64,000 nucleotides of DNA from an uncultured Chloroflexia bacterium. GTDB taxonomy: Bacteria > Chloroflexota > Limnocylindria > Limnocylindrales > CSP1-4. Below are positions 10,560-48,747 of the stretch, piece by piece; the first letter of the stretch is position 1, and each line of letters begins with the position of its first letter. The position numbers and the translations under genes were made by a program. The notes beneath the pieces were generated by a model. That model made no database searches. It was not told the DNA's origin and saw nothing but the letters and a program-made list of their open reading frames with translations. The stretch spans positions 260,440-324,439 of the forward strand of contig CAVVJX010000005.1 of the NCBI GenBank assembly GCA_963748675.1. The letters are read 5' to 3'.

Positions 10560-10592
10560 AGGGGCCGTTGCGCCGTACCCACGCGCCGATCC

Positions 10593-20310: not shown

Positions 20311-20564
20311 ACAAGGGATCCTTGGAGTACGGGTTCGGAGGTGTGTCACCGATGCTCGGCGAAGCACCTTTCACGGTCCCTTGAAACGGTGCGGGCGTGC
20401 ATAGCCCGGACGGGTCACGGACGGGGGCGAGATAGTCCGGCCCAGGTCCTGCCTCGGCGGCCTTCCGACTGCCCTCGACCGCCCTCAACGCCAGCGAAAC
20501 CCGCGTGGAATCGGAAGAGCCGCGCCCCCCGACGCGGCTCTCCCTCCCCCGGATATTCGCAGGG

Positions 20565-21809
20565 TTACTTGATGAGCTGGATCCCGATCGCCGTCGTCCC
20601 CGGAGCCGTGTTCTGGCCCGGGATGATCGGACCGGCGGTCACGTAGTTGACGAACCAACCCTTGAGGCATCGAATGCGCCACCGTTGATGACGGGCACGA
20701 CCGTACCCTCCGGGGGGGTTCGCGCATTCATCGACGTTGCTGCCCTGGCACGTGGACCTGCTCGAGGTGGAAGACCGCGAGCGTATGGATGTAGTACCAG
20801 GTGTTGTTGCCGTGCGGGTCGGTCCCCGGCTGTCCGGGCAGATGCGCCGTCCCGGATCCTCGCGGCACGCGCCGTTGTTGAGCGGCAACATGACGGTCTT
20901 GCGGATGTAAGCGGACAGCTCGCCGTCCACGCTGTTCGGGTTGCCCGGTTGCGTCTGGAACCAGTCCGGGAGGTTGACCGTGATATTGAGGGGCCCGGTG
21001 ATCTCCTGACCCAGGTTCATGCCGGGCGCCAGGTCGAGCCATCCGAATGCCCCGGACCCACCGCTCGCGCTCTTGCACAGCGGCAGGATCGCCATCTTCG
21101 AAGTGTCGCCATTCGCGAACGTGCCACCTGGCAGCGACTCTGCGCCGACGATCGGCCAGTACTCGTCACCGGGGTCGGCGCCCGGAGGCGGCGCGCCGAT
21201 CCACGGCCCCTGGATGAGATTGCCGGAAGAGTCGCACTGCGACACCTGGACCGGGAACGTGACCGGGAGGAGCACGCAGCCATCGTCGTCCGCGACGCAC
21301 TCGCCGCTCAGCGGACCCGCGACGACCGTTGCCTCGGCAGTCGCCGGGATCTGGTCGAACCCGAAGATCCGGCTGAATGTCGTGCTGACCGTGCGCGAGC
21401 CGGTGGCTCGAACGCCCTCCGCGCCCGTCGGGATCGGCCCGGCCGTGTTCGTCACATTGATGCCGATGGGTGCCCCGAAGTCGTCCGTGTATTCGGCAGT
21501 CCAGCCGGCGAGCCCGTTGGCGAGCGCGCTCGCCGAGACCGCGTTGTACACCGCCAGGTTGTCGCGGCCCGAAGCGCCGCCCATGTACTCGGCGATGACG
21601 ACGGTACCGGCGGTGGCCGCCCCGTCAGCGCCGTTCTGGGCGACACGCTGCTGGGCGAACAGGGCCCCGCCGTCGAGCACGAGCCCGACCATCCCGACGA
21701 CCGCCACGAGGGCCAGAGCGGCGATGACCAGCATCTGCCCTCGGGTGGCGTCTGGCGACGAAGAAGCTCGCATCTTGGTTTTCCTTTCGGCTGACGGAAG
21801 TCTGGGCAT
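20565..21809 (-). pseudogene. TadG-like protein, copy 2, with compensated internal frameshifts (pseudogene or assembly indels)
   Basis: The N-terminus MLVIAALALVAVVGMVGLVLDGGALFAQQRVAQNGADGAATAGT parallels copy 1. Between about 20650 and 20880, the segments matching copy 1 (GNNTWYYIHTLAVFHLEQV, GTVVPVINGGAFDA) lie in the other two frames. Confidence 0.6.
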
Positions 21810-22324
21810 CAGGGTTGCTTCGGACAAAGATCGGCACTCGCGTAGGCGGTGATGTTGACGTTGGGGCACACGAACTCGACCGGCACCTCGGACCGCGCCC
21901 TGAAGGTGATCGGTCCGATGACCTGGCCGAGGATCGGCGTGATCGCGGTCCAGTTCGACTCGGGGCTGACGATCGCGATGCAACCGACGGCGATGTCCCC
22001 GGTAGGGCACACCGGGTTGGACGTGGGCGTCCCTTTTGGGCCTTCGCGATGGAAGCGAACGAAGTTCGGCGTGCCAAGGTTGGTGACGCTGTTCCCGAAC
22101 GTCATCTCGGTTACGCGGTCCTCGATGAGACCCTCGTCCTGGTTCACGGCCGCCAGTCGCGCCCCCTCACGAGCGGCGTTGGTGAGGCCGTTGTAGACGA
22201 ATACCGCCCGCCCGACGTCGAAGACGGCCATCAGGATCAGCATCGCGATGGAAAGACGAGGGTGAGCGACGAATTCAATGAGCGATTGACCTCCCTAGGC
22301 CCGCGACGAGCCGGGACGCCTCAC
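21809..22324 (-). pseudogene. TadE-like pseudopilin, copy 2, with an in-frame TAG in the leader
   Basis: GTG at 22324 overlaps the upstream stop (GTGA). The reading is V-RRPGSSRA-TAG(22297-22295)-GGQSLIEFVAHPRLSIAMLILMAVFDVGRAVFVYNGLTNAAREGARLAAVNQ. The first in-frame start after the TAG (22243) falls inside the TM helix. Confidence 0.55.
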
Positions 22325-23977: not shown

Positions 23978-25450
23978 CTACCCCTCGTCGCCCGGCTCGC
24001 CCGGCAGCACGATCGTGAACGCCGCGCCACGGCCCGCGGCCGCGACCCCGGCCCCGGCCGCAACCCCATTCCCGGCCGCAGGCTCCAGCACCAAGTCCCC
24101 GCCCATCGCCCGGCACAGCTCGCGCGAGACGTAGAGACCCAGCCCGCTCCCCCCGTCCGATCCGGCCTCCTCCCCGCGCGCGAACCGCGCGAACAACCGG
24201 TCACGATCCCCCTCGGCGATGCCGGGCCCGCGGTCCTCGATCGTCAGCCGCACCTTTCGGTCCGCCTCGTCGGCGACGATCCTGGCCCCGACCGGGGTAC
24301 CGCCACCGTACTTCACGGCATTGTCCAGGAGTGCCCACAGGACCTGGTCGAGCTGGTCCGCGTCGGCGACGGCCAGCCAGCCCGCGGCCCCATCCTCGAG
24401 CGAGAAGGGCACGTCATCCACGCCGAGGGCCTCCCACGCCTTGCGCGCGCGCGTGGACAGCGACACGACCTCGGTCCGTGGCTTGAGCGCGCCGGACTCC
24501 AGGCGCGTCACGGTCAGGAGCTGCCGGACCATCCGCGACAGCCGCTCGGACTGCTCCGCGATGATCCCCAGGCGTCGATCAGGCGGGGCCAGCTCCTCGC
24601 TCAGCTGTTCCGCGTAGGCACGGATGCTCGTCAGGGGCGTCTGGAGGTTGTGGCTCACGCCGCGCAGGAAGTCGTCCTTGGCCTCGTCGAGCTCCAGCAG
24701 CTGACGGTTCTGCGACTCCACGGTCGCGAACAGCTGGGCGTTGCGGATCGCCGCGGCCATCGCATTGGCGAAGAGCTCCAGCAGGTCCTGGTCCGCCGGC
24801 TCCCAGCGGCGTGTCGCCGGCAACCGGCCGATCAGCACCCCGATGTCCGCGCCACCCGCCCGCATGACCGCGCGCAAGGGGCGCGAGACACCCGGGACGA
24901 CCTCCTCCTCATCGACGATCGACGGGTCGCCGACCACCACGGTCGCATCGATCAACGCGAACGCCGACGTCGCATCCGACGATGTCCGATCGACCAGTGC
25001 CTCCACATCGTCGCGCAGCGAGACCTCGTCGATGGCCGCGAGGATCCGCCCGAGCTCCCGGTTGCGCCGCCCGAGGTCGGCGGCCAGTCGGTTGTGGCTG
25101 TCGGCCAGTCGCGCGAACTCGTCGTCACCGGCGACCCGGATCGGGGTCGAGAGGTCGCCGGTCGACACTCGGTCCACGGCCGCCACGACCGAGCGGAGCG
25201 GGGCGGTCAGCTCGGTCGCCAGGGCGTACGAGGCGAAGATCGCGAATGCCAGCACGATGGCGATCGCGAACAGGAGGACCCGGCCGATCGTCTCGTCCGT
25301 GACCTGGAGGCGGAATGTCGTCTCGAGGACCAGCACGACCAAGCCGAACGTGGCCAGCGGCAGGACCGACGCCACGATGAACGCGACGGTGAGCCGGGAC
25401 CGGAAGCTCAGCCGGGGGGTGGGTTCGGTGGGCCGCTCGTCCTCGGTCAC
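23978..25450 (-). CDS. sensor histidine kinase (TM-HAMP-GAF-like-HisKA-HATPase)
   Basis: H-box FLRGVSHNLQTPLTSIRAY, N and G boxes (LLDNAVKYG, DRGPGI, GSGLGLYV). GTG start at 25450 overlaps the response regulator stop. Confidence 0.85.
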   Translation of the reverse strand: MTEDERPTEPTPRLSFRSRLTVAFIVASVLPLATFGLVVLVLETTFRLQVTDETIGRVLLFAIAIVLAFAIFASYALATELTAPLRSVVAAVDRVSTGDLSTPIRVAGDDEFARLADSHNRLAADLGRRNRELGRILAAIDEVSLRDDVEALVDRTSSDATSAFALIDATVVVGDPSIVDEEEVVPGVSRPLRAVMRAGGADIGVLIGRLPATRRWEPADQDLLELFANAMAAAIRNAQLFATVESQNRQLLELDEAKDDFLRGVSHNLQTPLTSIRAYAEQLSEELAPPDRRLGIIAEQSERLSRMVRQLLTVTRLESGALKPRTEVVSLSTRARKAWEALGVDDVPFSLEDGAAGWLAVADADQLDQVLWALLDNAVKYGGGTPVGARIVADEADRKVRLTIEDRGPGIAEGDRDRLFARFARGEEAGSDGGSGLGLYVSRELCRAMGGDLVLEPAAGNGVAAGAGVAAAGRGAAFTIVLPGEPGDEG

Positions 25451-26175
25451 CCGGGATCGCTCGTCGGGCTGGCGGGCGTCGCCACCAGTCGATAGCCCAC
25501 GCCGCGCACGGTCTGGACGTGCATCGGGCGGTTGGCGTCCACCTCGACCTTCTGGCGCAGCCGCCGCATCGTGACCCAGACGTAGGACGGGTCGGCGTCC
25601 TCGGTCTCGGCCCAGCCGCGGGCGAGCAGCGTCTCGGTCGTCACGACCTGGCCGAGGTTCGCGGCAAGCGCGTAGAGGAGCCGAGACTCGGTGGGGGTGA
25701 GCTGGACGGTCTGCCCGCGGACGGTCGCCTCGCGCCGGTGCAGGTCGAGCGTCAGGTCCGGACCCAGGTCCAGGCTCTGGCGGGGGACCTTGTCGCCCAG
25801 GCGCCGAAGCACTCTATTGATACGCGCGCGGAGCTCCGGGTAGTGGTACGGCTTGGTGACGTAGTCCTCGGCGACCTCCTCGAGCAGGTCGGCCTTCGAG
25901 TCGCCGGCATCGATGGCGGACAGCACGATGATCGGCAGGTCGGCATGGGTCTTGATCTCGCGCGCGAGGGTCAGGCCGTCCATGCGCGGCATCATCATGT
26001 CGACGATGAGCAGGTCCGGCCAACCCGCCTGCAGCCGCCGGAGCGCCTCGTCCCCGTCGCGCGCGGTCGCGATCTCGTAGCCGTCCGCCCGCAGCTGGTC
26101 GGCCAGCAATACGAGCAGGTTCGGGTCGTCATCGACGATGAGGATCCGGGGGGCTGGACCGCCGCCGCTGAGCAT
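25447..26175 (-). CDS. OmpR/PhoB-family response regulator
   Basis: Receiver domain (ILIVDDDPNLL...LLIVDMMMPRMDG...YVTKP) and winged-helix C-terminus (LTPTESRLLYALA...VRGVGYRL). ATG at 26175. Confidence 0.9.
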   Translation of the reverse strand: MLSGGGPAPRILIVDDDPNLLVLLADQLRADGYEIATARDGDEALRRLQAGWPDLLIVDMMMPRMDGLTLAREIKTHADLPIIVLSAIDAGDSKADLLEEVAEDYVTKPYHYPELRARINRVLRRLGDKVPRQSLDLGPDLTLDLHRREATVRGQTVQLTPTESRLLYALAANLGQVVTTETLLARGWAETEDADPSYVWVTMRRLRQKVEVDANRPMHVQTVRGVGYRLVATPASPTSDPG

Positions 26176-26753
26176 GTGCGTGAGTATGCCGCGCCTCCCC
26201 GGACCCGGGAGAGTACGGATGACGGTGCGCTCGCGCACCGAAAACGGAACTTGTGCGGTCTTGTAGTCCAAATGGGGGATGACTTTCGTCGGTAGGGCGG
26301 TACTGTTGCCGCTCAAGCCGCCCTCGGGGGAGGGCAGGAATTGAACAGTCGACCCGTCCCGTTTCTGGGGAAGCGACACTCGGGCCGAGCGCGCACAACC
26401 AGCACTCATCTTCGTTCGATCTTTTCGGCAGTCAGCGCGATCGACCCGAGCGACCCACCCGCACCACGATCTTGCACTCGGGATCGTGGGCCGCGGGGCT
26501 TTCGCTTCCCCATCGAACTCGACGGGTCTCCGTCACCAACGCGTCCAGGCGTTCAGGGAGGCCTATATGTCCGGTTCAGCCGGCCACCGATCCGTCGCTC
26601 GACTCCTCGTTGCCATCCAGGTCTTCCTGCTCGTGGCTTCTTTCTTCGCGCCCGTCGCGAGCCTGGCGGCCGAGCCGTCGGACGATCCGGGCGCCACGCC
26701 GAGCGCGGAACCGTCCGCCGAGCCGACGCCGGAACCGACCCCGGAACCGACGC

Positions 26754-26888
26754 GCCGAGCCGACCGCCGAGCCGACGGCCGAGCCGACTGCCGAGCCCAC
26801 GGCCGAGCCGACGGCGGAGCCGACTGCCGAGCCCACGGCCGAGCCGACGGCCGAGCCGACCGCCGAGCCCACGACCGAGCCGACGCCG
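26754..26888 (+). repeat. 12-bp tandem repeat GCCGAGCCGACN encoding an (AEPT)n linker
   Basis: About 11 consecutive 12-nt units, seen directly. Flanked by looser PE/PT-rich sequence from about 26695 to 26960. Confidence 0.85.
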
Positions 26889-29800
26889 AGCCGACCGCGA
26901 GCCCACTCCGCCGAGCCGAGCCCGCTCGAGCCGACCGCCGAGCCCACCCCGAGCCGACCGCCCCCGCGGCCACCAAGCCCTACGTCGTCAGCTTCGTCGC
27001 CGGCACCGCCTCCGCCGCGCAGACAGCTGCCGTCGCCGCCGCCGGCGCCACGACCACCGACACGATCGGCGTCCTTCGCATCCACGCGGTCGACGCGTCC
27101 GATGCCGCCGTCGCCCTGCTGCGCGCCGACCCGCTCGTCGGCGCCGTCGAGCTCGATCGCAGCCGCGCCGCCGAGGCCACCCGACCGACCCGAACTACGC
27201 CGACCAGTGGGCCCTGCCGAAGATCGGCTGGGACGATGCGTATCGGCGTCGTCGAGCCCGCCGGCTCCGCCGTCGTCGCCGTCCTCGACACCGGTGTCGA
27301 CGCCTCGCACCCCGACCTCGACGACAACATCGTCACCGGCACCTCGTTCGTCGCGGGCTCCGAGCTGGTCGACCGACACCAACGGCCACGGCACCGCCAT
27401 GGCCGGCATCGTCGCGGCCGAGACCGACAACGGCGCGGGCGTCGCCGGCGTCGGCTACGCCGGCGTCAAGGTCATGCCCGTCACCGTCCTCGGCGCCGAC
27501 GGCCACAGGCCACGACAGCGACATCATCGAGGGCGTCGTCTGGGCAGCCGACCACGGCGCCGACGTCATCCTCATGTCCTTCAGCGCGACCGGCTACTCG
27601 TCCGCCCTGCAGGCCGCCATCGACTACGCCTGGTCGAACGGCGTCGTCCTCGTCGCGGCCGCCGGCAACGACGGCTCGTCGACCCCGGCCTTCCCGGCCG
27701 GCGATCGCGGCGTCATCGGCGTCTCGAACACCGACTCGTCCGATGCCCTGGCCGGCTCGTCCAACTACGGCGCGTCGGTCTTCCTCGGCGCCCCCGGCGT
27801 CGGCATCTGACCACCGAGAACGGTGGCTACTCGACGATCTCCGGCACGTCCGCCTCCGCGGCGCACGTCGCGGGCGCGGCGGCCTTGCTGGCCGCGGCCG
27901 ATTCGATCGCCTCGAACGGCACGATCGTCGGCCGGCTGGCCCGCAACGCCGATGCGGCGGGCACCGTCGGCCGAGACCGGCAATGGCCGGCTGAACCTGG
28001 CCCGGGCCCTGGGCGACACCGCGACCGACTCCGTGAAGCCTGCGGGCGCGGCGCCGGTCGGCGACGGCGGTCCGTTCGTCGGGCCGTACGACGCGGCCGC
28101 AAACAACTTCAACGTGTCGCCAGCAACCCAGAACGTCGCGCCCGGCTTCACGAAGAGCTACTCGTGGGCGTTCACCGCGCAGAACAGCGCCAACCAGGCG
28201 ACAACCACGTTCACGACTCCGGCGGGATGGACCGCGCCAACGACCGCTGCCGGTGCCGGCAACGTGACGGTCGTGGCCGGAACCTGCCCGGCTACCTTGG
28301 CATCCGTGACTAGTGCAACCCGCGTGATCACGATCGACCAGGGCCCAGGTAGCAACACCTGTGCCAATGGGACGACGTTCACGCTCTATTACAACCAGGC
28401 GACGTCACCGACGTCGGCTACTGCACCCGAGCAGACGTATCAGTTCGTGAACCAGCATGGCCAGGATCCGGACGTGACGGTCGAGTACAACTACTTCTCG
28501 AACGTCTCCCCTAGCGGCAACTGGAACGTTGCGGCCAACTGGGAGTTGTGCGACGCGACCACGGGATCGATTGTTCGCCCATCCCTCCGGCTGTCGCGCC
28601 GAGCGCGGCCAACGCGAACCTCATCCATATCCGATCCTTCGACACCATCAATGTTTCTTCTGCGGTTACCGCGGATCAGGTGCACGTCGCCACGGCTGCC
28701 ACGCTGATCATCAATGCCGGTCAGACGCTGACGCTGGCGGATGGCCCCAATGGAGCCGGCGGCTGGCGGACCTCACGTCGGCGGGACGGTCGTGGTCAGC
28801 GGCACGCTGACTCACGCGCCCAGTGCTGGCACAGGTGTGTTTGGCGCGTTCCAAATCACGAGCTCGGGCGTTGTAAATGGCAATGGCGCTAGTCCCGCAG
28901 CCAAGCCCGATTTCATCGTCGCGTTTGGGAATCTGACGATCGATCCGGGTGGCGTGTGGACGACGGGCGGTTCGGGCCCGATGAGGTTGACCTTTGAGTC
29001 AGGGTCAACAGGCACGCTCAACGGAAATGTCACGGGAACGAGTGATCTGACGGTCAACGGCATCGTCACCGCATCTGCGAACATCGCCATGGCCTCGATT
29101 GCCAACCTGCAGATCGGCGGCAGTCTCACGCTGTCGAGCGCCATCCTGACGACACCGCGTGGGAACGGGGAATTTCGTCGCCCAGATCAATTCTGGAGGC
29201 AACCTCGCCCTGGATGGCTCGTCCACATGGAACGTCGGGACCGTGGCCGCTGCTCGTGGCGAGGTCCGGAGCGGCGGCACGCTCGCAATGAGCCCATCTT
29301 CGGAAGTCCTTGGCGCAGGGTTCCTGCAAGTCGACTCTGGCGCGACGCTACGTATCGGTTCGGCCGACGGTATCGCGAACAGCACGACCACCGGTAACGT
29401 CCGGACGTCGGCCGCCGACACCTACTCGACCGCTGCCAATTACACCTACGACGGCGCGACCCAGGTTACCGGCAACGCCTTGCCTGCGACGATCGCCACG
29501 CTCACGATCGCCAGCACCGGCGTCGTTACCATAAGTAGCCTGGGGGCCCTTCAAACGGTCACCGGGCTGACCGCCGCGACGTCCGGGACGTTCGATCAGG
29601 GACCGAGCATCAACCTGACCGCGGGTGGCGGCATCTCAGTGGCCGCCGGCGCGACCTACCGAAACCTCGGCACTGGCGATCTGACGCTCGGGTCTGCCGG
29701 CGTGACCAACGCGGGCGCGATCCAGATCAACGCAAACGGCGCCACTTGCGGCAATACCGACGACATCCTGATTCGCCGACCAACATTGGAACGCAGCGCC

Positions 29801-30305
29801 CATGGTCGGGCGTCGGCACCTTTGACCTGCAGGACATCAACGTCCGTGACCAGGCCGGAACGGCGCGATCACGGTCATCAGCGGAACGAACCTCGCCAAC
29901 AACGGCGCGAACTGGACGTTCGTGGCCTCCTGCAACAGCGCGCCTGTCGCCACAACCCCGGCGTTCAGCCCCGCCAGCCCCACCACCAACAGCCTGCTCC
30001 AGGGCTCGACGACGGTGACCGACGCTGACCTCAACAGCTCGACTGTCGCGTTCCTCTGGAGGGTGACCCGCGGGCTGACCACGTGCGATGTGCGCACGAT
30101 CACCTCGGCTGCCGCTTCGAGCGGCGCCGTCCATACCGACACGCTCAACCTCGGGATCAGCCACACCGCGACGAACTGCGTCGGGCCGGTCCTTGCCACC
30201 ATCAACCCCTCAGAGGGTGATGTCATCACCTTGACCGTGATCCCGAACGACGGGACGGTCAATGGCACAGCACAAAGCAACTCCGTGACCGTGGGGAACT
30301 CGGCC

Positions 30306-31769
30306 CCGGTCTGCCTGGACGTCACGATCACGACCGACGAGGACACCGCCGGCTCCACGGCGCCGAGCTGCACCGACGCCGACGGCGAGACCCTGACCTA
30401 CACCGTCACCGCGGCCGCGACCGGCATCTCCGGGACCGACGGCACGCCTCGACCCTGACCTACGACCCGAACGGCCAGTTCGAGTACCTCGACACCGGTG
30501 AGACCGCGACCGACGCGTTCACCTACACGGCCAACGACGGCACGGTCGACTCGAACGTCGCCGACGTCGACGTCACGATCAACGGCGTCAACGACGCCCC
30601 GGTCTGCCTGGACGTCACGATCACGACCGACGAGGACACCGCCGGCTCGCACGGCGCCCGAGCTGCACCGACGCCGACGGCGAGACCCTGACCTACACCG
30701 TCACCGCGGCCGCGACCGGCATCTCCGGGACCGACGGCACGTCGACCCTGACCTACGACCCGAACGGCCAGTTCGAGTACCTCGACACCGGCGAGACCGC
30801 GACCGACGCGTTCACCTACACGGCCAACGACGGCACGGTCGACTCGAACGTCGCCGACGTCGACGTCACGATCAACGGCGTCAACGACGCCCCGGTCTGC
30901 CTGGACGTCACGATCACGACCGACGAGGACACCGCCGGCTCCACGGCGCCGAGCTGCACCGACGCCGACGGCGAGACCCTGACCTACACCGTCACCGCGG
31001 CCGCGACCGGCATCTCCGGGACCGACGGCACGTCGACCCTGACCTACGACCCGAACGGCCAGTTCGAGTACCTCGACACCGGTGAGACCGCGACCGACGC
31101 GTTCACCTACACGGCCAACGACGGCACGGTCGACTCGAACGTCGCCGACGTCGACGTCACGATCAACGGCGTCAACGACGCCCCGGTCTGCCTGGACGTC
31201 ACGATCACGACCGACGAGGACACCGCCGGCTCGCACGGCGCCGAGCTGCACCGACGCCGACGGCGAGACCCTGACCTACACCGTCACCGCGGCCGCGACC
31301 GGCATCTCCGGGACCGACGGCACGTCGACCCTGACCTACGACCCGAACGGCCAGTTCGAGTACCTCGACACCGGTGAGACCGCGACCGACGCGTTCACCT
31401 ACACGGCCAACGACGGCACGGTCGACTCGAACGTCGCCGACGTCGACGTCACGATCAACGGCGTCAACGACGCCCCGGTCTGCCTGGACGTCACGATCAC
31501 GACCGACGAGGACACCGCCGGCTCCACGGCGCCGAGCTGCACCGACGCCGACGGCGAGACCCTGACCTACACCGTCACCGCGGCCGCGACCGGCATCTCC
31601 GGGACCGACGGCACGTCGACCCTGACCTACGACCCGAACGGCCAGTTCGAGTACCTCGACACCGGCTGAGACCGCGACCGACGCGTTCACCTACACGGCC
31701 AACGACGGCACGGTCGACTCGAACGTCGCCGACGTCGACGTCACGATCAACGGCGTCAACGACGCCCCG
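30306..31769 (+). repeat. tandem array A: five near-identical ~291-bp units (97-aa cadherin/VCBS-like module)
   Basis: The unit encodes VCLDVTITTDEDTAGSTAPSCTDADGETLTYTVTAAATGISGTDGTSTLTYDPNGQFEYLDTGETATDAFTYTANDGTVDSNVADVDVTINGVNDAP. GTCTGCCTGG recurs at 30309, 30602, 30895, 31186 and 31478, giving spacings of 293, 293, 291 and 292. Confidence 0.9.
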
Positions 31770-33520
31770 GTCGTCACGCTCGACGCTGGGAACGACCTCA
31801 ACGTGGACGAGGGCTCGACGACTTCGTACGAGTTCTCGATCTTCGACGCCGAGGGCGATTCAGTCGACCGCCGTGACGGTCGACTGCGGCGCCAACGGCG
31901 ACCCGGCCACCAACGTCACCTTCACCGATCACGACCGGCAGCTTCGACTGCACCTTCCCCGACGGCGACGCCCTGAGCACGATCAGTGCCAGCGCGACCG
32001 ACTCGGACGGCGACACCGGCGCGGCCGACACCCAGGTGGTCACGATCAACAACGTGGCCCCGACGGTGACCCTGTCGGCGCTCAACGACCTCGACGTCGC
32101 CGAGGGCTCGACCACGACCTACACCTTCTCGATCTTCGATCCGGGCGACGACACGGTCACCGCCGTGACGGTCGACTGCGGCGCCAACGGCGACCCGGCC
32201 ACCAACGTCACCTTCACCGACACGACCGGCAGCTTCGACTGCACCTTCCCCGACGGCGACGCCCTGAGCACGATCAGTGCCAGCGCGACCGACTCGGACG
32301 GCGACACCGGCGCGGCCGACACCCAGGCGGTCACGATCAACAACGTGGCCCCGACGGTGACCCTGTCGGCGCTCAACGACCTCGACGTCGCCGAGGGCTC
32401 GACCACGACCTACACCTTCTCGATCTTCGATCCGGGCGACGACACGGTCACCGCCGTGACGGTCGACTGCGGCGCCAACGGCGACCCGGCCACCAACGTC
32501 ACCTTCACCGACACGACCGGCAGCTTCGACTGCACCTTCCCCGACGGCGACGCCCTGAGCACGATCAGTGCCAGCGCGACCGACTCGGACGGCGACACCG
32601 GCGCGGCCGACACCCAGGTGGTCACGATCAACAACGTGGCCCCGACGGTGACCCTGTCGGCGCTCAACGACCTCGACGTCGCCGAGGGCTCGACCACGAC
32701 CTACACCTTCTCGATCTTCGATCCGGGTGACGACACGGTCACCGCCGTGACGGTCGACTGCGGCGCCAACGGCGACCCGGCCACCAACGTCACCTTCACC
32801 GACACGACCGGCAGCTTCGACTGCACCTTCCCCGACGGCGACGCCCTGAGCACGATCAGTGCCAGCGCGACCGACTCGGACGGCGACACCGGCGCGGCCG
32901 ACACCCAGGTGGTCACGATCAACAACGTGGCCCCGACGGTGACCCTGTCGGCGCTCAACGACCTCGACGTCGACCGAGGGCTACGACCACGACCTACACC
33001 TTCTCGATCTTCGATCCGGGTGACGACACGGTCACCGCCGTGACGGTCGACTGCGGCGCCAACGGCGACCCGGCCACCAACGTCACCTTCACCGACACGA
33101 CCGGCAGCTTCGACTGCACCTTCCCCGACGGCGACGCCCTGAGCATCGATCAGTGCCAGCGCGACCGACTCGGACGGCGACACCGGCGCGGCCGACACCC
33201 AGGTGGTCACGATCAACAACGTGGCCCCGACGGTGACCCTGTCGGCGCTCAACGACCTCGACGTCGCCGAGGGCTCGACCACGACCTACACCTTCTCGAT
33301 CTTCGATCCGGGTGACGACACGGTCACCGCCGTGACGGTCGACTGCGGCGCCAACGGCGACCCGGCCACCAACGTCACCTTCACCGACACGACCGGCAGC
33401 TTCGACTGCACCTTCCCCGACGGCGACGCCCTGAGCACGATCAGTGCCAGCGCGACCGACTCGGACGGCGACACCGGCGCGGCCGACACCCAGGTGGTCA
33501 CGATCAACAACGTGGCCCCG
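31770..33520 (+). repeat. tandem array B: one diverged plus five near-identical 291-bp units (a different 97-aa Ig-like module)
   Basis: The unit encodes VVTINNVAPTVTLSALNDLDVAEGSTTTYTFSIFDPGDDTVTAVTVDCGANGDPATNVTFTDTTGSFDCTFPDGDALSTISASATDSDGDTGAADTQ. GTGGTCACGATCAAC (GCGGTC in the unit at 32327) recurs at 32036, 32327, 32618, 32909, 33203 and 33494. Confidence 0.9.
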
Positions 33521-33826
33521 ACAACTCCGAACCTTTTGGCGCCGCCAGACGGCACGATCACCAACGACGCCACGCCGACCTTCGACTGGAGCGACTCCAC
33601 GGACCCGGCTGGCGCCAACGACACCATTTCGTACTCGATCCAGGCGGACAACGATGGCTGCCTGTTCCCGAGCCCCGAGGTCGGCGAGGTCGGCCTAGCC
33701 GCATCGACGTTCACACCCAGCACGAACCTCGCCGACGGCACCTATTGCTGGCGCGGCAATGCGAGCGATGAGGACGGCGGCACGAGCGCCTATAGCTCCA
33801 CCCGCATGGTGATCATCGACACGACC

Positions 33827-34420
33827 GTCCCGACCGGATCCATCACGATCAACAGCAACGCCACCTACACGAATGCCACCTCGGTCACGCTCAACCTGAA
33901 CGCGACCGACCTGAATGGCATCGTCAGCTACCGCGTCGCCAACGGCGCCGACTGCTCGAGCGCGACCTTCGTGGCCCCGTTCACCGCGGTCAGTCCGTAC
34001 AGCGCCAATGTCAGCCACACCCTGCCGTCAGGCGACGGCACGAAGACGGTCTGTGTCCAGTACCGGGATGCCGCCGGCAACGTGTCCACGACCTCCACCG
34101 ACTCGATCATCCTGGATCAGACGGTCCCGACCGGATCCATCACGATCAACAGCAACGCCACCTACACGAATGCCACCTCGGTCACGCTCAACCTGAACGC
34201 GACCGACCTGAATGGCATCGTCAGCTACCGCGTCGCCAACGGCGCCGACTGCTCGAGCGCGACCTTCGTGGCCCCGTTCACCGCGGTCAGTCCGTACAGC
34301 GCCGATGTCAGCCACACCCTGCCGTCAGGCGACGGCACGAAGACGGTCTGTGTCCAGTACCGGGATGCCGCCGGCAACGTGTCCACGACCTCCACCGACT
34401 CGATCATCCTGGATCAGACG
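33827..34420 (+). repeat. two tandem 297-bp units (99-aa Ig-like module)
   Basis: Units start at 33827 and 34124. I see one difference (GCCAATGTC versus GCCGATGTC). They encode VPTGSITINSNATYTNATSVTLNLNATDLNGIVSYRVANGADCSSATF... Confidence 0.9.
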
Positions 34421-35183
34421 GTCCCGAACGTCACGATCACCGACCCAGACCACGGGATCACCTATACCGCGCTGACCTGGAACGCAGGCTGCGGAACGAC
34501 GTTTGTCGGTGATTTCTGCGGGACAGCGTCTGATGCGCTGAGTGGGCTCAGTTCCGTTCACTACAGCATCCAGCGAGTCAGTGACAGCAAGTTCTGGAAC
34601 GGGACGAGTTTCTCGAGCAGTACCGAGGTCTTCCTGACACCGACGGGTCTCGCGAGCTGGACGCAGGCGTTCGCCTACGGCAATTTCCCGGCGACCGGCC
34701 TGTACACCCTCAAGGCTCGTGCGACTGACGTCGCCGGCAACACAAAGACCGTTAGCGCGACCTTCACCATCAACAATCCAAGCGGTGGCATCTACGTCTT
34801 CGAGGGCTTCTTCCAGCCGATCGACAATGTGCTGCTGAACAAGGCCAATGCAGGGAGCACGGTTCCCGTGAAGTGGCGGATCACGCTGAACGGCGTGGCG
34901 GTGTCCGACCCGAACAGCTTCGTCGCACTGACCTCGAGGCTCGTGGACTGTGGGACGCTCGTCGGCCTTCCAGTTGACGACATCGAGACCTACAGCACGA
35001 ACTCGGGGCTCCAGTACACCGGCAACGGAAGCTGGCACTTCAACTGGAAGACACCCAAGAGCTACGCCAACGAGTGCCGGATCATGACCTTGACCCTCAA
35101 CGACGGAAGCACACATGACGCGGACTTCAAGTTCAAGTAAGCCAGCCCACTAGTCCAGCGCTCGTCCTACTCCGAGCGCGCGC

Positions 35184-35235: not shown

Positions 35236-36093
35236 CTAGGGCGCCTTCGGGTCCACGTAGCGGCAGCGCGCGCGTAGCGGGCACTCGTCGTGCTCGGGGC
35301 GCTGGGCGTGGCAGACCTTGCGGCCGTGCTGGATGAGGTTGACGTGGGCCTCGTACATCTGGTCGGGCTCGAACAGCCCCAGGACCAGGTCGTGCGCCTC
35401 ATCGAGGCTGGGCTTGGGCGGCAGCACGCCGACCCGGCGCATCACGCGGTCGACGTGGCGGTCGATCGGCAGCAGCGGCTGGCCGAAGCAGAACAGCAGC
35501 AGCACCGAGGCGGTCTTCTTGCCGATGCCATCGATCTCGTCGAGCCAGTCGCGCGCCTCGATCGCCGGCATGTCGCCGAGGAATTCGAGGGAGTAGTCGC
35601 CGCGCTCCTCGCGGATCTTGCGCAGGGTCGTTTGGAGGCGTGGCGCCTTCTGGTTGGGCAGACCGCCCGGACGGATGACGTTGGTCAGTTCGGGGATCGG
35701 GGCGAACTCGACGCGCGCCCAGTCCGGCGCCGCGCCGTCCGGCAGCCCGAACCCGCCCCAGCCGGCGCCGGGCTTGTGCGCCTCGACCGGGCCGCCGCCC
35801 GGGTACGCGCGGCGGAGCGCCTCGAACGCGGCCTCGGCATTGGTGTCGGCGGTGCTCTGGGTGAGGATCGTCAGGATCAGTTCGCTCGTCGGGTCGAGTC
35901 GGCGCTCCCACGCCGGTCGGCCGTACTTGGAGGCCAGGCCGTCGAGGACGAACGGGATGAGCCCCGGCCGGTAGCGCTCGAGCCGCTTCGCGTAGCTCCG
36001 CCCCGGGTCGCTGAACTTGCGCTTCTTCGGTCGGCGACGCTTGGCCTTGGGTGCGGGCATCGGCGGCGGGACGAGCGGATCTTTGGTAGTCAT
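35236..36093 (-). CDS. endonuclease III-like HhH-GPD base-excision repair protein
   Basis: HhH-GPD motifs (LTILTQSTADTNA, IDGIGKKTASVLLLFCFGQPLLPIDRHVDRV) and a Cys-rich C-terminus (VCHAQRPEHDECPLRARC). The ATG at 36093 overlaps the upstream stop (ATGA). Confidence 0.8.
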   Translation of the reverse strand: MTTKDPLVPPPMPAPKAKRRRPKKRKFSDPGRSYAKRLERYRPGLIPFVLDGLASKYGRPAWERRLDPTSELILTILTQSTADTNAEAAFEALRRAYPGGGPVEAHKPGAGWGGFGLPDGAAPDWARVEFAPIPELTNVIRPGGLPNQKAPRLQTTLRKIREERGDYSLEFLGDMPAIEARDWLDEIDGIGKKTASVLLLFCFGQPLLPIDRHVDRVMRRVGVLPPKPSLDEAHDLVLGLFEPDQMYEAHVNLIQHGRKVCHAQRPEHDECPLRARCRYVDPKAP

Positions 36094-37211
36094 GCGATCG
36101 CCCCTCCGAGGGCGACGAGCCTGGCGATGCGTTCGCCACAGCGTTCCAGGGGTGCCGTACCTGCGGCCATCGCTTCCTCCACCGATTGTGGCCGCTCGGT
36201 CACCGGGACGGCCACGGCACCGACCTCCGCCAGGGCCGCGATGCCCTCGACTTCGACGCCGCCACCGACCGCGATGCATGGCACGCCCGCCGCTTGGGCA
36301 CGGCGCGCGACCCCGAGCGCGGTCTTGCCGAAGGCCGTCTGGGCATCGATCCGGCCCTCGCCGGTGATGACGAGGTCGGCCCGCGCGAGCCGCGCCTCGA
36401 AGTCCGTCGCATCCATGACGAGGTCGACGCCGGGGCGCAGCCCGAACGCCCGGAACCGATCCTGGATGGAGAGCAGCGCATAACCGACGCCGCCGGCCGC
36501 GCCGGCGCCCGGGGTCGTTCGCTCGGGGCGGCCGCCCACGAGTTCCATCGAGTCGGCAAATCGACCGAGCCGGCTGTCGAGATCCTGAACGTCGTCGGGC
36601 GTGGCGCCCTTCTGCGGGCCGTAGACCGCGGCGGCCCCGGTCGGTCCGCACAGGGGGTTCGAGACGTCGCAGGCCACCTGCAGCTCGACGGTGGCGAGCC
36701 GCGGATCGAGGTCGGCGAGGTCCACGGATGCGGTGTCCCGGTCCGCACGGGCCCCAAGGCCGGTCAGCAGCCCGGCGCCGCCGTCGGTCGTGGCGCTGCC
36801 GCCGATGCCCAGGACGATGCTGCTCACCCGGGCATTCAACGCGGCCCGGATCAGGTCCCCGGTCCCGATCGAGGTCGCCCGGATCGGGTCACGTTCGTCC
36901 GTGGCCAGGAGGGAGAGGCCCGAGGCCGCGGCCATCTCGACTGCTGCGCGCTGCCCGTCGTCCGAGATCAGCCACCGCGCCGTGATCTGGCGACCGAGCG
37001 GGTCGCGGGCGGTCGATGTCCTTCGTTGCCACCCGCCGGCGGCCTCGATCGCCGCGAGCGTGCCCTCGCCCCCGTCCGCGAGCGGGCAGAGCAGGATCTC
37101 GTCGTCAGGACGGGCCTGACGCCAGCCATCGGCCAGGGCCTGCGCGACCTGGACCGACGTCAACGACCCCTTGAACGAGTCGGGCGCGATGAGGACGGTG
37201 CGCCCGCTCAT
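36090..37211 (-). CDS. glycerate kinase
   Basis: The N-terminus VLIAPDSFKGSLTSVQVAQALADGW...CPLADGGEGT and the C-terminal ITGEGRIDAQTAFGK are typical of the glycerate kinase family. Confidence 0.85.
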   Translation of the reverse strand: MSGRTVLIAPDSFKGSLTSVQVAQALADGWRQARPDDEILLCPLADGGEGTLAAIEAAGGWQRRTSTARDPLGRQITARWLISDDGQRAAVEMAAASGLSLLATDERDPIRATSIGTGDLIRAALNARVSSIVLGIGGSATTDGGAGLLTGLGARADRDTASVDLADLDPRLATVELQVACDVSNPLCGPTGAAAVYGPQKGATPDDVQDLDSRLGRFADSMELVGGRPERTTPGAGAAGGVGYALLSIQDRFRAFGLRPGVDLVMDATDFEARLARADLVITGEGRIDAQTAFGKTALGVARRAQAAGVPCIAVGGGVEVEGIAALAEVGAVAVPVTERPQSVEEAMAAGTAPLERCGERIARLVALGGAIA

Positions 37212-42044: not shown

Positions 42045-42078
42045 CGTAGCCCTCCGGGCGACGCGTATCATCCGGCTC

Positions 42079-43455
42079 GTGGCCACTGCCGCCCCGCCCA
42101 CGGGTCCTGCCCCGCGCGCCGGCGGTCTCGCCGCCCTGACGCCGAGTGGCCGCGCGGTCGTCCCGGTCGCGTGGGCCCTGTACGACCTCGCCAACACCAT
42201 CTTTACGTATTCGGTCGTGTCGTACGCGATGGGGCTGTGGGTGATCGACCGCCTCGGACCGGCCGACGGGCAGTTCTGGTTCGGTGTGGCGGCCGCGGCC
42301 AGCGTCCTGCTGAACGCGATCGTGTCGCCGATCCTGGGAGCGATCAGTGACCGCGGAGGCAGGCGGTTGCCGTACCTGCTGGTCTTCACCGCGATCACGG
42401 TCGTGGCGACCGCCCTGATCGCGTTCGTGGACGCGGCCGCTTTCGGCCTGCTGCTGTTCGCGATCGCGAACTTCGCCTACCAGGCGGCCCTCATCTACTA
42501 CGACGCCACCCTCCCGGTCGTGGCCAAGCCCGAGGCACGGGGACGCATGTCGGGCATCGGCGTGGCGGTCGGCTATATGGGCACGCTGATCATCGCCGGC
42601 CTGATCCTGATCACGGGCTCCGGGGCGGAGCCGCTCACGTTCCTCATGGCCGCGGGCCTGTTCACGGTCTTCGCCATCCCGATCTTCGTGTTCGTGAAGG
42701 AACGAGCCGTGAGCGACTACCGGTTCCAGCTGCGTGACGTGCTGTCGTCGTGGTCGCAGCTCGGAACGACGATCCGCCACGCTTCGGAGGTCCCGGGTCT
42801 GATCCGGTTCCTGGTCGGGCGGTTCTTCTACACGGACCCGGTCAACACGGTGATCGTCGTGATGAGCGTCTTCGCCACCGAAGCGATCGGCCTGTCGAGG
42901 GCCGACGTCAACATCGTCCTGTTGCTGCTCACGGTCGTGGCCGTGTTCGCGAGTCTCGGCTGGGGCCGCCTCGTGGAGCGGATCGGACCGAAGCGGACGC
43001 TGATCATCGTGCTCGGGACGTGGTGCGTTGGCCTGCTCATCGTGGGTGCCGTCCTGTCCTTCCCGACGTTCCTGATCGGTGGCGCGCTGCTGGGCGCGGG
43101 GCTGGGCGGGGTCTGGACGTCGGACCGGGTGTTCATGCTGCGGCTGTCGCCGCCGGACAAGGTCGGCGAGTTCTTCGGCCTGTACGGGATCGCCGGCAAG
43201 TTCAGCGCGGTCACCGGGCCGCTGTTGTACGGGGCGATCGTGTCGAGCCTGCTCAACGCCGGCTGGGGCGCGGGGGCGTACCAGGTCGGCATCCTGAGCT
43301 TCCTCGGGCTGATGCTGATCGGGGTCGCGCTGCTCCGGGGTGTGCCGGAGCCGCCGGACCGGATCCCGACCGAGCCCGTGGTCCCGCCGCTCGCGCCACC
43401 GGTCCGCCTCGCCCCAGCTGCCGCGCCGATCACGCCCGGCGATCAGTCGGAGTAG
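42079..43455 (+). CDS. MFS transporter (UMF1/Atg22-like by resemblance)
   Basis: N-terminus WALYDLANTIFTYSVVSYAMGLWV and about 12 TM helices. The GTG start at 42079 is tentative. Confidence 0.75.
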   Translation: MATAAPPTGPAPRAGGLAALTPSGRAVVPVAWALYDLANTIFTYSVVSYAMGLWVIDRLGPADGQFWFGVAAAASVLLNAIVSPILGAISDRGGRRLPYLLVFTAITVVATALIAFVDAAAFGLLLFAIANFAYQAALIYYDATLPVVAKPEARGRMSGIGVAVGYMGTLIIAGLILITGSGAEPLTFLMAAGLFTVFAIPIFVFVKERAVSDYRFQLRDVLSSWSQLGTTIRHASEVPGLIRFLVGRFFYTDPVNTVIVVMSVFATEAIGLSRADVNIVLLLLTVVAVFASLGWGRLVERIGPKRTLIIVLGTWCVGLLIVGAVLSFPTFLIGGALLGAGLGGVWTSDRVFMLRLSPPDKVGEFFGLYGIAGKFSAVTGPLLYGAIVSSLLNAGWGAGAYQVGILSFLGLMLIGVALLRGVPEPPDRIPTEPVVPPLAPPVRLAPAAAPITPGDQSE

Positions 43456-44442
43456 CCGCCCTGGTGCGCCTGACGCCACGCCCAGGCCGAGCCGACGATC
43501 TCGTCGAGGCTGGGCCGGTGCGGCCGCCAGCCGAGGATCTCCCCGGCCCGCGCCGCCGACGCGACGAGGACCGGTGGGTCGCCCGTCCGCCGCGGGCCGA
43601 TCTCGTGCGGGATCGCGTGACCGACCACGCGCTCGGCGGCGGCGAGCACCTCGAGGTTGCTGAACCCGCCGCCGTTGCCCAGGTTGCAGATGACGGCGCC
43701 GCGGGCGGTGCGCTCGTCGTCGCGGGCCGTGGCCTCGATCGCCCGCAGGTGCGCGTCGGCCAGGTCGGCCACGTGGATGTAGTCGCGGACGCAGGTGCCG
43801 TCGGGCGTCGGGTAGTCGCCGCCGAACACCGTCACCGGGCCGGCCGGCCTCGAGCGCGCCGAAGATCGCCGGGATGAGGTGCGTCTCGGGGTCGTGGTCC
43901 TCGCCCAGCGCCTCGGTCGCGCCGGCGACGTTGAAGTAGCGGAGCGTGACGCTGCGCGTGCCGTAGGCCCGGGCGTACCAGAGCAGGGCGCCTTCGAACG
44001 CGCGCTTCGTCTCGCCGTACGGGTTGATCGGCCGGAGCGGGGCGTCCTCCGTGATCGGGGTGGCGTCGGGGACGCCGTAGACGGCCGCGGTGGACGAGAA
44101 GACCACGCGATCGACGCCGACCTCGCGCGCCGCCTCGAGCAGCGTGATGCCGCCGGCGACGTTGTCGCGGAAGTAGCGGGCGGGGTCTTCGATCGACTCA
44201 CCGACCAGCGAGCGCGCCGCGCAATGGAGGATCGCCTCGACGTTCTCGGCGGCGAGGAGGCGGGTCACGGTGGCGCTGTCGCCGTAGCTCCCGACGTGCA
44301 GCTGCGCCCCCTGCGGGACCGCGGAACGATGCCCGGTCGTGAGGTCGTCGAGGACCACGACCTCGTGGCCTGCCTCGAGGAATGCCTCGGCTGACACCGA
44401 GCCGACATAGCCGGCACCGCCGGTCACGAGAACCTTCGTCAT
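43443..44442 (-). pseudogene. galE: UDP-glucose 4-epimerase with one frameshift (pseudogene or 1-nt assembly insertion)
   Basis: N-terminus MTKVLVTGGAGYVGS...YGETK in one frame. From about 43845 the sequence continues as VTVFGGDYPTPDGTCVRDYIHVADLADAH...GGYSD in another frame. Removing one G from CCCGGTGAC restores the frame. Confidence 0.8.
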
Positions 44443-44658
44443 ACCCCGAACGATACGGTCCGACGCGGAACGGCGTCAGCGACGGATTTCGGGCTCGTCA
44501 TCGCTCGCAGCGATCGAATTCAGGTTGAAGGCTCTGTCGACGGCTCGAACTAACGGTCGCTACCGCCCTGGACACCAGATCATCGCGGCCAGCGATGGGC
44601 GCGCCGTGGCTGACGCATCGGTCGAGATCGCGTCCGGTCCGAACGACCCTCTGGCGCA

Positions 44659-45102: not shown

Positions 45103-46464
45103 CCCGCCTTCTCCGAACTGAGCCTGCGGCGAGCGAGATCGAGCAGGCCCTCCCGCGTGTTGACCGACGGGTCGGCGATGACCCGCTCGAGCAGCCAATC
45201 CAGCAGGCGCCCGAGGCCGGGCCCCGGTTCGATGCCCAGCTCCGACATCAGGTCCGAGCCATCGATCGCGAGGCCGCTGAGGTCCAGCGCCACGCCCGCG
45301 TCGAGCTCCTTGGCGACCCGCGCCCGGAGCTCGTCCAGCCCACCGGCATTCGGTTCTCGCCCAGATCCGATGTGGTCCGCCTCGCGCAGCAGAAACTGGT
45401 CCTCCAGCTCATCGCGCGTGATCTTCACGATGAACCGGCGGACGGCCGCGTCCGACCAGGTCGGCTCGTACCCGAACATGTGGTGGCGGACGAGACGCAC
45501 GATCCTCTGGCGCTCCGCCACGGGCCAGCGCCAGTCGTCGAGGAGCTTGTCCGCCAGCTCCGCGCCGACCGACTCGTGGCCCAGGAACCGGCCGTCCGCC
45601 ATCGTCAGCGGCTTGCCGATGTCGTGGAGCAGGGCGGCGAGTCGGATCCGCGCCGGCTCCTTGGCCGCCCCATCGACTGCGCGGAGCGTGTGGTCCCAGA
45701 GGTCCTCGCCGGGGACCTTGTTCTGCGGCACGCCGGGTTGCGCGGCGAGATCCGGGGAGATGGCGAAGAGCAGCCCGGTGTCGGCCATGAGCCGAAGACC
45801 GACCGACGGACGATCGGCGGCGAGCAGCCGCTTCATCTCGATCGCGATCCGTTCGCCCGACAGGTCGGCGCACGTTGTCGGCCTTCTCGCGGATCGCCGC
45901 CAGCGTCGCCGGCTCGACCTCGAAGTCGAGCGTGGCCGCCAGCCGGACGGCACGGACCATGCGCAGGGCGTCCTCGTGGAAGCGCTCGGCGGGGTCGCCG
46001 ACGGTCCGCAGGGTCCGAGCGGCGAGATCGACCTGGCCACCGTGCGGGTCGACGAGCCGCGGCGGCTCGCCGGGCTCGGCGCCCCAGGCCATCGCGTTGA
46101 CCGTGAAGTCGCGCCTCGCCAGGTCCAGCTCGATGGACTCGCTGAACTCGACCCGATGCGGCCGGCGGAAGTCGGCGTAGTCGTGGTCGGAGCGGAAGGT
46201 CGTGATCTCGACCTCGCCGACGTCGGGGTCCTCGGTTCGGACCGCGACCGTCCCGAACTTGTTCTCGTAGACGGCGCCCGGGAACAGCTCGAGCGTGCGT
46301 TCGGGCAGCGAGGCGGCCGCGAGGTCCCAGTCGTCGGGCGGCCGGCCCTGGAGGCTGTCGCGCAGCGACCCACCCACCACGTAGGCCGCGTGGCCGGCGG
46401 ACCAGAGCGTGCGGAGCAGGCCGTGGACGGCGTCCGGGATCGACTGCTCGAGTTCGGTCGACAC
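45099..46464 (-). pseudogene. cca: CCA-adding enzyme / poly(A) polymerase-family nucleotidyltransferase with HD domain, one frameshift
   Basis: The N-terminal part (YVVGGSLRDSLQGRPPDDWDLA...RRDFTVNAMA...ERFHEDALRMVRAVR) is in one frame. From about 45875 the sequence continues as DLSGERIAIEMKRLL...AALLHDIGKP...HHMF in another frame. Confidence 0.75.
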
Positions 46465-46481
46465 GTCGCCCGCTCGGGGCG

Positions 46482-46997
46482 TCAGTTCCGCCCGAGGAAC
46501 AGGTACGTGCGCCACGCGTCGTTGCGCTCGTCCACGAGGTACGGCGTGAACAGCGAGTAGATGTCGCTGCGTGGCTCGTGCGGCTCCCGCTTGAGTCGAA
46601 GCCGGGCCTCGTCGAGCGTCTTGCCGCCCTTTCGATGGTTGCAGGGCTTGCATGCGGTGACGAGGTTCTCCCAGCTGTGGGCCCCGCCTCGGTGGCGCGG
46701 CATCACGTGGTCGAGCGTCAGGTCGTGGGTCTGGCGGCCGCAGTACTGGCACGTGTGTCGATCGCGCGCGAAGACCTCGCGACGGCTGAGCTTCACGCGG
46801 GGACGTGGCCGGCGGATGAAGTGCTGCAGCCGGATGACGGAGGGCGCGCGGAACTCCGTCCGCGGCGTCCGAATCATCTGGTGGTCGTACTCGATCACCT
46901 CGGCCTTCTCACCGAAGAGCAGTCGGAAGGCCCTGGGCAGATTGCAGACGTTGAGCGGCTCGTAGTTCTGGTTCAGAACGAGAACGACGCCGTCCAT
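46482..46997 (-). CDS. HNH endonuclease-family protein
   Basis: CQYCGRQTHDLTLDHVMPRHRGGAHSWENLVTACKPCNHRKG. Confidence 0.8.
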   Translation of the reverse strand: MDGVVLVLNQNYEPLNVCNLPRAFRLLFGEKAEVIEYDHQMIRTPRTEFRAPSVIRLQHFIRRPRPRVKLSRREVFARDRHTCQYCGRQTHDLTLDHVMPRHRGGAHSWENLVTACKPCNHRKGGKTLDEARLRLKREPHEPRSDIYSLFTPYLVDERNDAWRTYLFLGRN

Positions 46998-48471: not shown

Positions 48472-48495
48472 CGCGCGGGGGTCATCGACGAGCGG

Positions 48496-48699: not shown

Positions 48700-48747
48700 G
48701 GGCGCAGCGTACCGCGTTCGCGATGCTCGAGGACCAGCGACATCGGC

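Follow-up and report, generated by a model that had tools for sequence, protein, structure and literature searches.

Between positions 26567 and 35140 of a 64,000-nucleotide (nt) window of contig CAVVJX010000005.1, from an uncultured Chloroflexia bacterium, the parts of a giant subtilisin-like (S8) protease with a long repetitive stalk follow one another on the + strand, strung across all three reading frames. What kind of locus is this: several small genes, a gene expressed by recoding, a gene in decay, or an ordinary gene whose sequence is damaged in the record? The locus is one gene; its frame breaks are clustered and, wherever their polarity can be read, are insertions; and it has intact relatives. 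Most probably it encodes a giant subtilase, secreted or displayed on the cell surface, as a gene of functional type, and the frame breaks are consensus insertion errors, not biology.

The window has a GC content of about 70%, and a frame plot of GC at third codon positions (GC3) was too noisy; it was replaced by a Viterbi codon-usage model trained on intact genes within the window. The model yields one coding path on the + strand, which starts at the ATG at 26567, runs continuously through 26567-35137 and terminates at a TAA (35138-35140). An AGGGAGG ribosome-binding site (RBS), read directly in the sequence, precedes this ATG, and the pair is the only combination of RBS and start that fits the coding path. 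The corrected protein comprises 2,847 aa (about 2,850 codons), and no in-frame stop occurs in the 2,847 corrected codons. A first-pass annotation, made from the sequence alone, had proposed a repaired product of about 2,850 aa that joins a protease head to a long repetitive stalk, and nearly all the parts that it had listed were recovered on the + strand where it had placed them. The hidden Markov model scan of the corrected translation that it had suggested returned Peptidase_S8, cadherin-like/VCBS, Big and PxKF matches, and the arrays of 291-bp and 297-bp units, together with a 12-bp linker array, were located by Tandem Repeats Finder (TRF).

As deposited, the catalytic domain does not lie in one uninterrupted frame: five frame changes fall between 27240 and 27968, and Pfam Peptidase_S8 matches the region as three frame fragments of 21, 55 and 49 bits. 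After frame correction, a single match is obtained, covering positions 4-280 of the 288-position model at 137.3 bits (cut-off 21.8, E=8e-40). The catalytic motifs are all intact and stand in canonical order within 27275-27875: the Asp motif VAVLDTGVD (27275-27301) in frame 1, the His motif NGHGTAMAG (27381-27407) in frame 2, the oxyanion Asn motif AAAGNDG (27655-27675) in frame 0 and the Ser motif GTSASAAHVAG (27843-27875) in frame 2. The earlier statement that Asp, His and Ser occupy three different frames therefore holds for Asp, which stands apart, whereas His and Ser share a frame and the third frame is taken up by the oxyanion Asn. The TGA reported between the His and Ser motifs (27808-27810) is present and is the first frame-0 stop following a shift. 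With the catalytic domain spread over three frames, the locus as written indeed cannot be translated.

Because there is a single RBS and start, because the S8 domain is divided among frames and because the domain order is that of intact relatives, 26567-35140 is one gene, not several. Several of the fragments are long open reading frames (ORFs) with GTG or TTG starts in a mechanical ORF list, which would fit a series of separate small genes; in DNA of 70% GC, however, chance ORFs of such length are expected in every frame, the S8 catalytic domain and single repeat units would be cut mid-domain, and in relatives the same parts share one frame. Independent RBSs and starts, which the first-pass annotation had named as the sign of several genes, were not found beyond the one RBS with its ATG. 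Expression of the fragments through programmed ribosomal frameshifting or transcriptional slippage would call for more than 20 shifts, in both directions, at unrelated and non-slippery sequences. Both explanations were rejected on the mid-fold domain cuts, the one RBS and the number of non-slippery shift sites (>20), and separate genes or programmed recoding are effectively excluded.

With the corrected protein as query, 890 homologues reach E<=1e-3. Among the top 120, all of them intact, lengths range from 1,047 to 3,219 aa, and in nearly every one PF00082 occurs together with Big_9, Cadherin, PKD, Big_13 or similar repeats; the named sources are Chloroflexota, Limnocylindria, Gaiellaceae, Solirubrobacteraceae and Acidimicrobiales metagenome-assembled genomes (MAGs). 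A PxKF-like domain, curated as NF038114, is shared by 20 of these 120 and lies at the extreme C-terminus in 19. The combination of parts, which the first-pass annotation did not recognise as a described family, is thus well represented: intact S8-plus-repeat proteins of 1,000-3,200 aa number in the hundreds among MAGs of Chloroflexota and Actinomycetota, and the kind is a common one in soil Chloroflexota. One homologue of 1,268 aa (P0002) carries S8, both repeat types, Big_13, the 99-aa unit, Big_3_2 and the C-terminal domain in the same order. No protein homologue is more than about 70% identical to the window protein, and the relatives found by genome scan are at most 77% identical.

The absence of any intact orthologue had been named as grounds for doubting the composite gene; an intact relative and a syntenic locus were found. 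In Chloroflexota bacterium ECS24B4 (JAILWI010000004.1, ~41450-46948; hereafter L001), an uninterrupted ORF of 1,832 aa (5867-11365) encodes a protein whose head is 57% and tail 65% identical, with a Calx-beta/Big_12 stalk in between. The syntenic locus belongs to uncultured Chloroflexia bacterium MFD04212.bin.1.72 (CAWEHW010000001.1, ~202.5-210.5 kb; hereafter L004) and lies in the same neighbourhood, with a response regulator upstream and HhH-GPD, glycerate kinase, Usp-GT2 and orf539 genes downstream, whose products are 73-91% identical to those of the window. Its S8 gene (3945-11932) holds the S8 domain in one ORF and requires two frame corrections in about 8 kb, both at repeat junctions, the gene being garbled at the junctions at 8340 and 8959. 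The L004 head is 68% identical and is followed by the same Big_13, Big_3_2 and PxKF tail; its stalk, unlike that of the window, consists of about 11 cadherin-like units of greater length, together with He_PIG and PKD domains, and lacks the beta-rich module. Two further copies, L002 (end of CAWAMB010000004.1) and L006 (start of CAWAMB010000002.1), come from one Nanopore MAG, and both contigs end inside the gene copy, which suggests that the assembly broke inside the repeats.

Proteins from Chloroflexota, Limnocylindria and Actinomycetota MAGs that join S8, Ig-like or cadherin-like repeats and PxKF (for example the L001 ORF, P0002, P0086, P0004 and P0113) follow the same layout of signal helix, PT linker, prodomain, S8 domain, variable stalk, Big_3_2 and PxKF, with heads 51-70% and tails 30-65% identical to the window protein. 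The window copy differs from them in its unique stalk, made of a beta-rich module and arrays of five and about six identical 97-aa units, and in that the deposited gene has at least 21 frame changes. The window, L001 and L004 have the S8 head and the Big_3_2-PxKF tail in common, but each builds its stalk from an entirely different set of modules. The architecture is of a widespread and already catalogued kind, with a conserved head and tail and a stalk that is swapped by cassettes even between syntenic relatives.

The Viterbi path contains 21 frame changes, all within 26752-33148, and parsing of the 12-bp units of the PT linker adds two compensating changes (~26886 and ~26905), so that the total is at least 21-23. 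Polarity was judged against otherwise identical sister units of the two 291-bp arrays. All ten events that could be polarised in this way are insertions, none is a deletion, and nine of the ten are not homopolymer extensions. Substitutions are scarce in the same sequence: of three variable sites in about 2.9 kb, one is in the first array (five units) and two are in the second (five near-identical units compared). The dense stretch (26.75-33.15 kb, about 6.4 kb) has its first break inside the PT-linker array and its last among the final 97-aa units, and the closing 1,990 bp of the gene, including the 2 x 297-bp repeat, remain in one frame. The flanking histidine kinase, response regulator and glycerate kinase (1-371 of 372 positions) are intact. 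Measured against L004, the broken S8 head has a ratio of nonsynonymous to synonymous substitution rates (dN/dS) of 0.30 and the clean C-terminal part one of 0.34; the flanking genes give 0.14-0.18.

A census of frameshifts across the whole window with Pfam and the Viterbi model revealed two more split genes beyond the S8 gene, both with housekeeping functions, for a GalE-like epimerase and for a CCA-adding enzyme, each with one extra base. Pfam Epimerase positions 1-197 lie in one ORF and 197-231 in an overlapping ORF, while the PolyA_pol head of the CCA-adding enzyme lies in ORF 45409-46752 and its RNA-binding, HD and C-terminal domains in ORF 45099-46373. Since both genes share the one-extra-base defect, the record appears to carry sporadic +1 errors in general. 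Short Viterbi excursions in a Tad-like gene (20565-22010), which is open throughout, were dismissed as noise.

We therefore read the 21-23 breaks as what would be residual single-base (in one case two-base) consensus insertion errors, concentrated in a low-accuracy stretch of about 6.4 kb, in an assembly that would also contain sporadic +1 errors outside it. A rival reading is true decay: an S8-stalk gene that once functioned would have lost its activity in this lineage and be accumulating frameshifts as a pseudogene. Such a fate would suit breaks confined to one non-essential, fast-evolving surface-protein gene between intact neighbours, at a locus whose stalk composition is wholly different between syntenic relatives and whose turnover is accordingly high. 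Exact look-ups of the neighbouring glycerate kinase and PdxS proteins also yielded no contig of the same genome, so that no independent sequence contradicts the breaks. In natural gene decay, however, substitutions far outnumber indels and the process is deletion-biased, whereas insertion-dominated random errors are typical of a low-depth long-read consensus; the polarisable events are all insertions, mostly outside homopolymers, and are accompanied by three variable sites only. The dense stretch also does not coincide with the gene, whose 3' 2 kb are free of breaks, and other signs of decay are missing: there are no nonsense substitutions, every catalytic residue is intact and dN/dS is equal in the broken and clean parts. 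The +1 defect recurs, moreover, in the epimerase and CCA-adding enzyme genes, which are themselves unlikely to be pseudogenes. A pseudogene is thus improbable. Errors in long reads are known to turn genes into false pseudogenes through frameshifts (PMC12007338), and the MFD MAGs, to which L004 belongs, are Nanopore assemblies (PMC12313526). Related long-read MAGs also fail at the S8 gene, with the contig breaks of L002 and L006 and the garbled copy of L004.

Several points weigh against consensus error as the whole explanation. The technical origin of the insertions is something that we infer from their pattern alone, and surface-protein genes are often genuinely pseudogenised. The error density, about 1 per 280 bp, is about 90-fold above that of the rest of the window, and about 3.5 kb of the dense stretch, in the S8 head and the beta-rich region, is not repetitive, so that repeat-related mis-polishing alone is an insufficient explanation. 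Nine frame changes are -1. Four of these lie in the arrays: three can be explained by pairs of single-base insertions or by 2-base insertions, which leaves the change in the PT linker at ~26948; the five outside the arrays could be deletions, a candidate being a C missing from the C-run near 27181. Two of the five first-array units furthermore have an identical G insertion (GGCTC[G]CACGG) at corresponding sites, 30644 and 31228, which suggests either a systematic error that depends on sequence context or a real variant common to both units. A plausible cause of the hot spot is low local coverage, or the merging of strains that differ at a hypervariable locus. The latter, a chimeric consensus of co-existing strains in which reads with different stalk cassettes were merged, is a special case of consensus error that we regard as possible rather than probable, and under it the repeat copy numbers may be wrong. 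It would agree with the hypervariability of the locus between relatives, with closest relatives that are all MAGs and whose assemblies break or garble inside the same gene, and with an error stretch that begins and ends inside repeat arrays (PT linker and last 97-aa units); strain mixing should, however, add substitutions too, and the repeats show almost none. That the inserted bases are real, so that an inactivated surface protease would have taken up about 25-30 almost exclusively single-base, non-homopolymer insertions in 6.4 kb with hardly any substitutions, is very unlikely. If it were true, the pattern would be the mark of a localised mutational process specific to insertions, or of a hypervariable surface-protein locus that very recently came under targeted decay in an uncultured Chloroflexota lineage. 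Consensus error in a single damaged gene remains our preferred explanation, and the features of that gene and of the other two broken genes are collected in the table.

Table. Features of the S8 gene, its frame breaks and the other split genes, in positions of the window.
Feature	Position	Strand	Basis or remark
RBS AGGGAGG (26555-26561) and start codon ATG (26567-26569)	26555..26569	+	read directly; Viterbi path
Predicted Sec signal peptide or N-terminal anchor helix (MSGSAGHRSVARLLVAIQVFLLVASFFAPVASLA/AEP; slash, putative cleavage site)	26567..26668	+	cleavage site placed from the A-x-A motif
Pro/Thr-rich (AEPT)n linker	26669..26962	+	TRF period 12, 24 copies; Pfam PT repeat E=4e-11
PT-linker frame changes	~26752, 26886, 26905, 26948	+	
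Prodomain-like segment, KPYVVSF...VELDR up to conserved DPNYADQWAL	26963..27240	+	conserved in L001 and L004
Prodomain frame change	near 27181	+	
S8 (subtilase) catalytic domain	27242..27968	+	Pfam PF00082
S8-domain frame changes	near 27240, 27370, 27500, 27807, 27968	+	
Conserved post-catalytic domain, GNGRLNLARAL...GPFVGPY..., ~180 aa	27970..28512	+	~60% identity in P0016, P0006, P0015, P0020, P0035
Beta-strand-rich Gly/Thr/Ala region opened by SGNWNVAANW (28513-28542), then ~150-aa pre-repeat segment	28513..30302	+	
Beta-rich region frame changes	near 28563, 28772, 29151, 29770, 29856	+	
Five 291-bp (97-aa) units, cadherin-like/Big_9/VCBS/tandem-95 type	30303..31772	+	TRF x5.0; unit alignment
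Insertions in first 291-bp array	30442 (CC), 30644 (G), 30653 (C), 31228 (G), 31660 (C)	+	relative to sister units
About six 291-bp (97-aa) units, second Ig-like type	31773..33522	+	TRF x5.9 at 31791-33522; unit alignment
Insertions in second 291-bp array	31861 (G), 31924 (T), 32966 (A), 32978 (A), 33141 (T)	+	relative to sister units
Last frame change of the gene	~33147	+	second 97-aa array
Big_13 Ig-like domain	33523..33822	+	Pfam PF19077, E=4e-13
Two 297-bp (99-aa) units (TVPTGSITINSN...)	33823..34427	+	TRF 2.0 copies, 99% matches, 0 indels, in frame
Big_3_2/OmpL47-type Ig-like domain	34428..34783	+	Pfam PF12245 E=4e-8; NCBIfam NF047446
C-terminal PxKF ('rightmost') domain, FEGFFQPIDN (34799)...VPVKW...ADFKFK (35120-35137), TAA stop	34784..35140	+	
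GalE-like NAD-dependent epimerase, split by one extra base near 43845	43446..44445	-	Pfam; Viterbi, one +1 skip
CCA-adding enzyme (tRNA nucleotidyltransferase), split by one extra base near 45870	45105..46491	-	Viterbi, one +1 skip

The N-terminus of the corrected protein consists of a hydrophobic helix and an ASLA/AEP motif, in which the slash marks the predicted cleavage site. For the segment between the linker and the catalytic domain, an I9-like propeptide had been proposed; Inhibitor_I9 (PF05922) gave no match there even at E<=5, and the only signal was a weak, sub-threshold Fervidolysin_NPro-like match (E=0.14, 13 bits against a cut-off of 21). The domain of about 180 aa that follows the S8 domain has no Pfam or NCBIfam match, in agreement with the earlier description of a domain without a recognised family at this place, and it is common to several homologues. 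The beta-rich region behind it, for which the first-pass annotation had suggested a beta-helix, has no Pfam, NCBIfam or PDB sequence match, and an AlphaFold single-sequence model of it (predicted local distance difference test, pLDDT, 46.8) was left unused, so that a right-handed beta-helix or PATR-type passenger is a putative assignment; the module recurs behind the S8 domain in P0027 (41% identity) and P0093 (33%).

The five-unit array matches Pfam Cadherin_4 (PF17803) at 61.5 bits (cut-off 25.1), Big_9 (PF17963) at 58.6 bits (cut-off 23.6) and NCBIfam VCBS (TIGR01965) at 24.8 bits (cut-off 15.5), and one unit scores 33.4 bits with tand_rpt_95, under that model's whole-protein cut-off of 90. 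Since the window's 97-aa units do not differ even in their DNA, either they were amplified very recently or their copy number is uncertain. The frame-corrected translation crosses junctions in, for example, ...AEATPTDPNYADQW... and ...GVGI?TTENGGYSTISGTSAS..., and the 99-aa units farther downstream are kept at 65-77% identity in L001 and L002.

The C-terminal domain is a member of NCBIfam NF038114, which it matches over model positions 2-113 of 113 at 95.7 bits (cut-off 35), the match ending at the last residue of the protein; the eponymous PxKF motif reads VPVKW here (34862-34876). AlphaFold modelled the domain as a beta-sandwich of 118 aa with a pLDDT of 89.5 from a 16-sequence alignment, and a fold search of the PDB with this model returned generic Ig-like neighbours only (TM<=0.5). 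A PDB sequence search with the C-terminal 446 aa yielded nothing significant, and nothing relevant was found in the literature on 'PxKF'.

Cell-envelope proteinases of Gram-positive bacteria, such as lactocepin (PrtP) and streptococcal C5a peptidase (ScpA), combine an N-terminal signal, a prodomain and an S8 head with a long run of beta-sandwich domains that positions the protease relative to the cell surface. The window protein has a similar layout, and the likeness is probably one of function; in contrast to these proteinases, it shows no match to a PA insertion, an LPXTG/Gram_pos_anchor or a helical spacer in Pfam and NCBIfam scans of the whole corrected protein, and it ends in a PxKF tail (...ADFKFK) in a Chloroflexota-like lineage. 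Membership of the PrtP/ScpA group was rejected on the missing PA domain and LPXTG anchor. Mycosin, a subtilase of the type VII secretion system (TIGR03921), is the best NCBIfam equivalog-type match of the catalytic domain, at 144.1 bits far under the cut-off of 278.75, and the likeness to fervidolysin-type subtilases is limited to the weak prodomain score (13 bits against 21); with both scores below their cut-offs, neither assignment was retained. An autotransporter subtilase of the SphB1/Ssp type was likewise rejected, as no autotransporter domain was matched in Pfam or NCBIfam and the C-terminus was modelled as a beta-sandwich.

Taken as a whole, the layout would allow export through the Sec pathway by way of the N-terminal signal or anchor. 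As other subtilases do, the protein would then fold with the aid of its prodomain and remove it by autoprocessing. Preceded by the Pro/Thr-rich linker and prodomain, the S8 head with its intact Asp-His-Asn-Ser set would be displayed or tethered by a stalk of about 2,300 aa, composed of beta-sandwich and beta-rich modules and ending in the PxKF beta-sandwich. Analogy with other surface-displayed subtilases suggests that the stalk may hold the protease at a distance from the cell or a substrate, or tether it there, and it is from such analogy that we infer the roles of the stalk and tail.

Divergent from the S8 gene, a two-component system is encoded on the - strand at 23978-26409 and consists of a HAMP-HisKA-HATPase histidine kinase and an OmpR-type response regulator; a response regulator is adjacent at the syntenic L004 locus as well, and a regulatory link from the two-component system to the S8 gene is possible. 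A Tad/Flp-pilus-related cluster (17451-22010, -) encodes TadE/TadG-like proteins, one of which carries two PKD domains; in L004, a Tad-like gene sits instead between the response regulator and the S8 gene. On the other side of the S8 gene, the HhH-GPD ORF (35236-36651, -) has a counterpart in L004 with which its alignment starts at residue 213, and the long stretch before this in the mechanical ORF is probably non-coding. An HNH-endonuclease-like ORF (~46494-46754) lies directly upstream of the CCA-adding enzyme gene. Farther along, 47527-58689 (-) holds an apparent acyl-CoA carboxylase/leucine-catabolism-like cluster, whose members include HMG-CoA-lyase-like, biotin carboxylase (with a biotinyl domain), enoyl-CoA hydratase and carboxyltransferase proteins. 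A scan for promoters and terminators returned no sites, tRNA and Rfam searches of the window gave no matches, and no paralogous copy of any part of the S8 locus was found elsewhere in the window.

The main value of this locus is one of caution: what looks like an exotic protease written in three frames is an ordinary member of the widespread giant S8-plus-repeat surface proteins, with a sequence most probably damaged by consensus insertion errors. The stretch 26.75-33.15 kb should be flagged as being of low accuracy, and likewise the broken genes at ~43.85 kb and ~45.87 kb, as annotation pipelines would label the S8 gene a pseudogene and a surface protein of about 2,850 aa would be lost. A minor biological point also emerges from the comparison with related Chloroflexota, in which the syntenic locus keeps the protease head and the Big_3_2-PxKF tail and exchanges its stalk cassettes completely.

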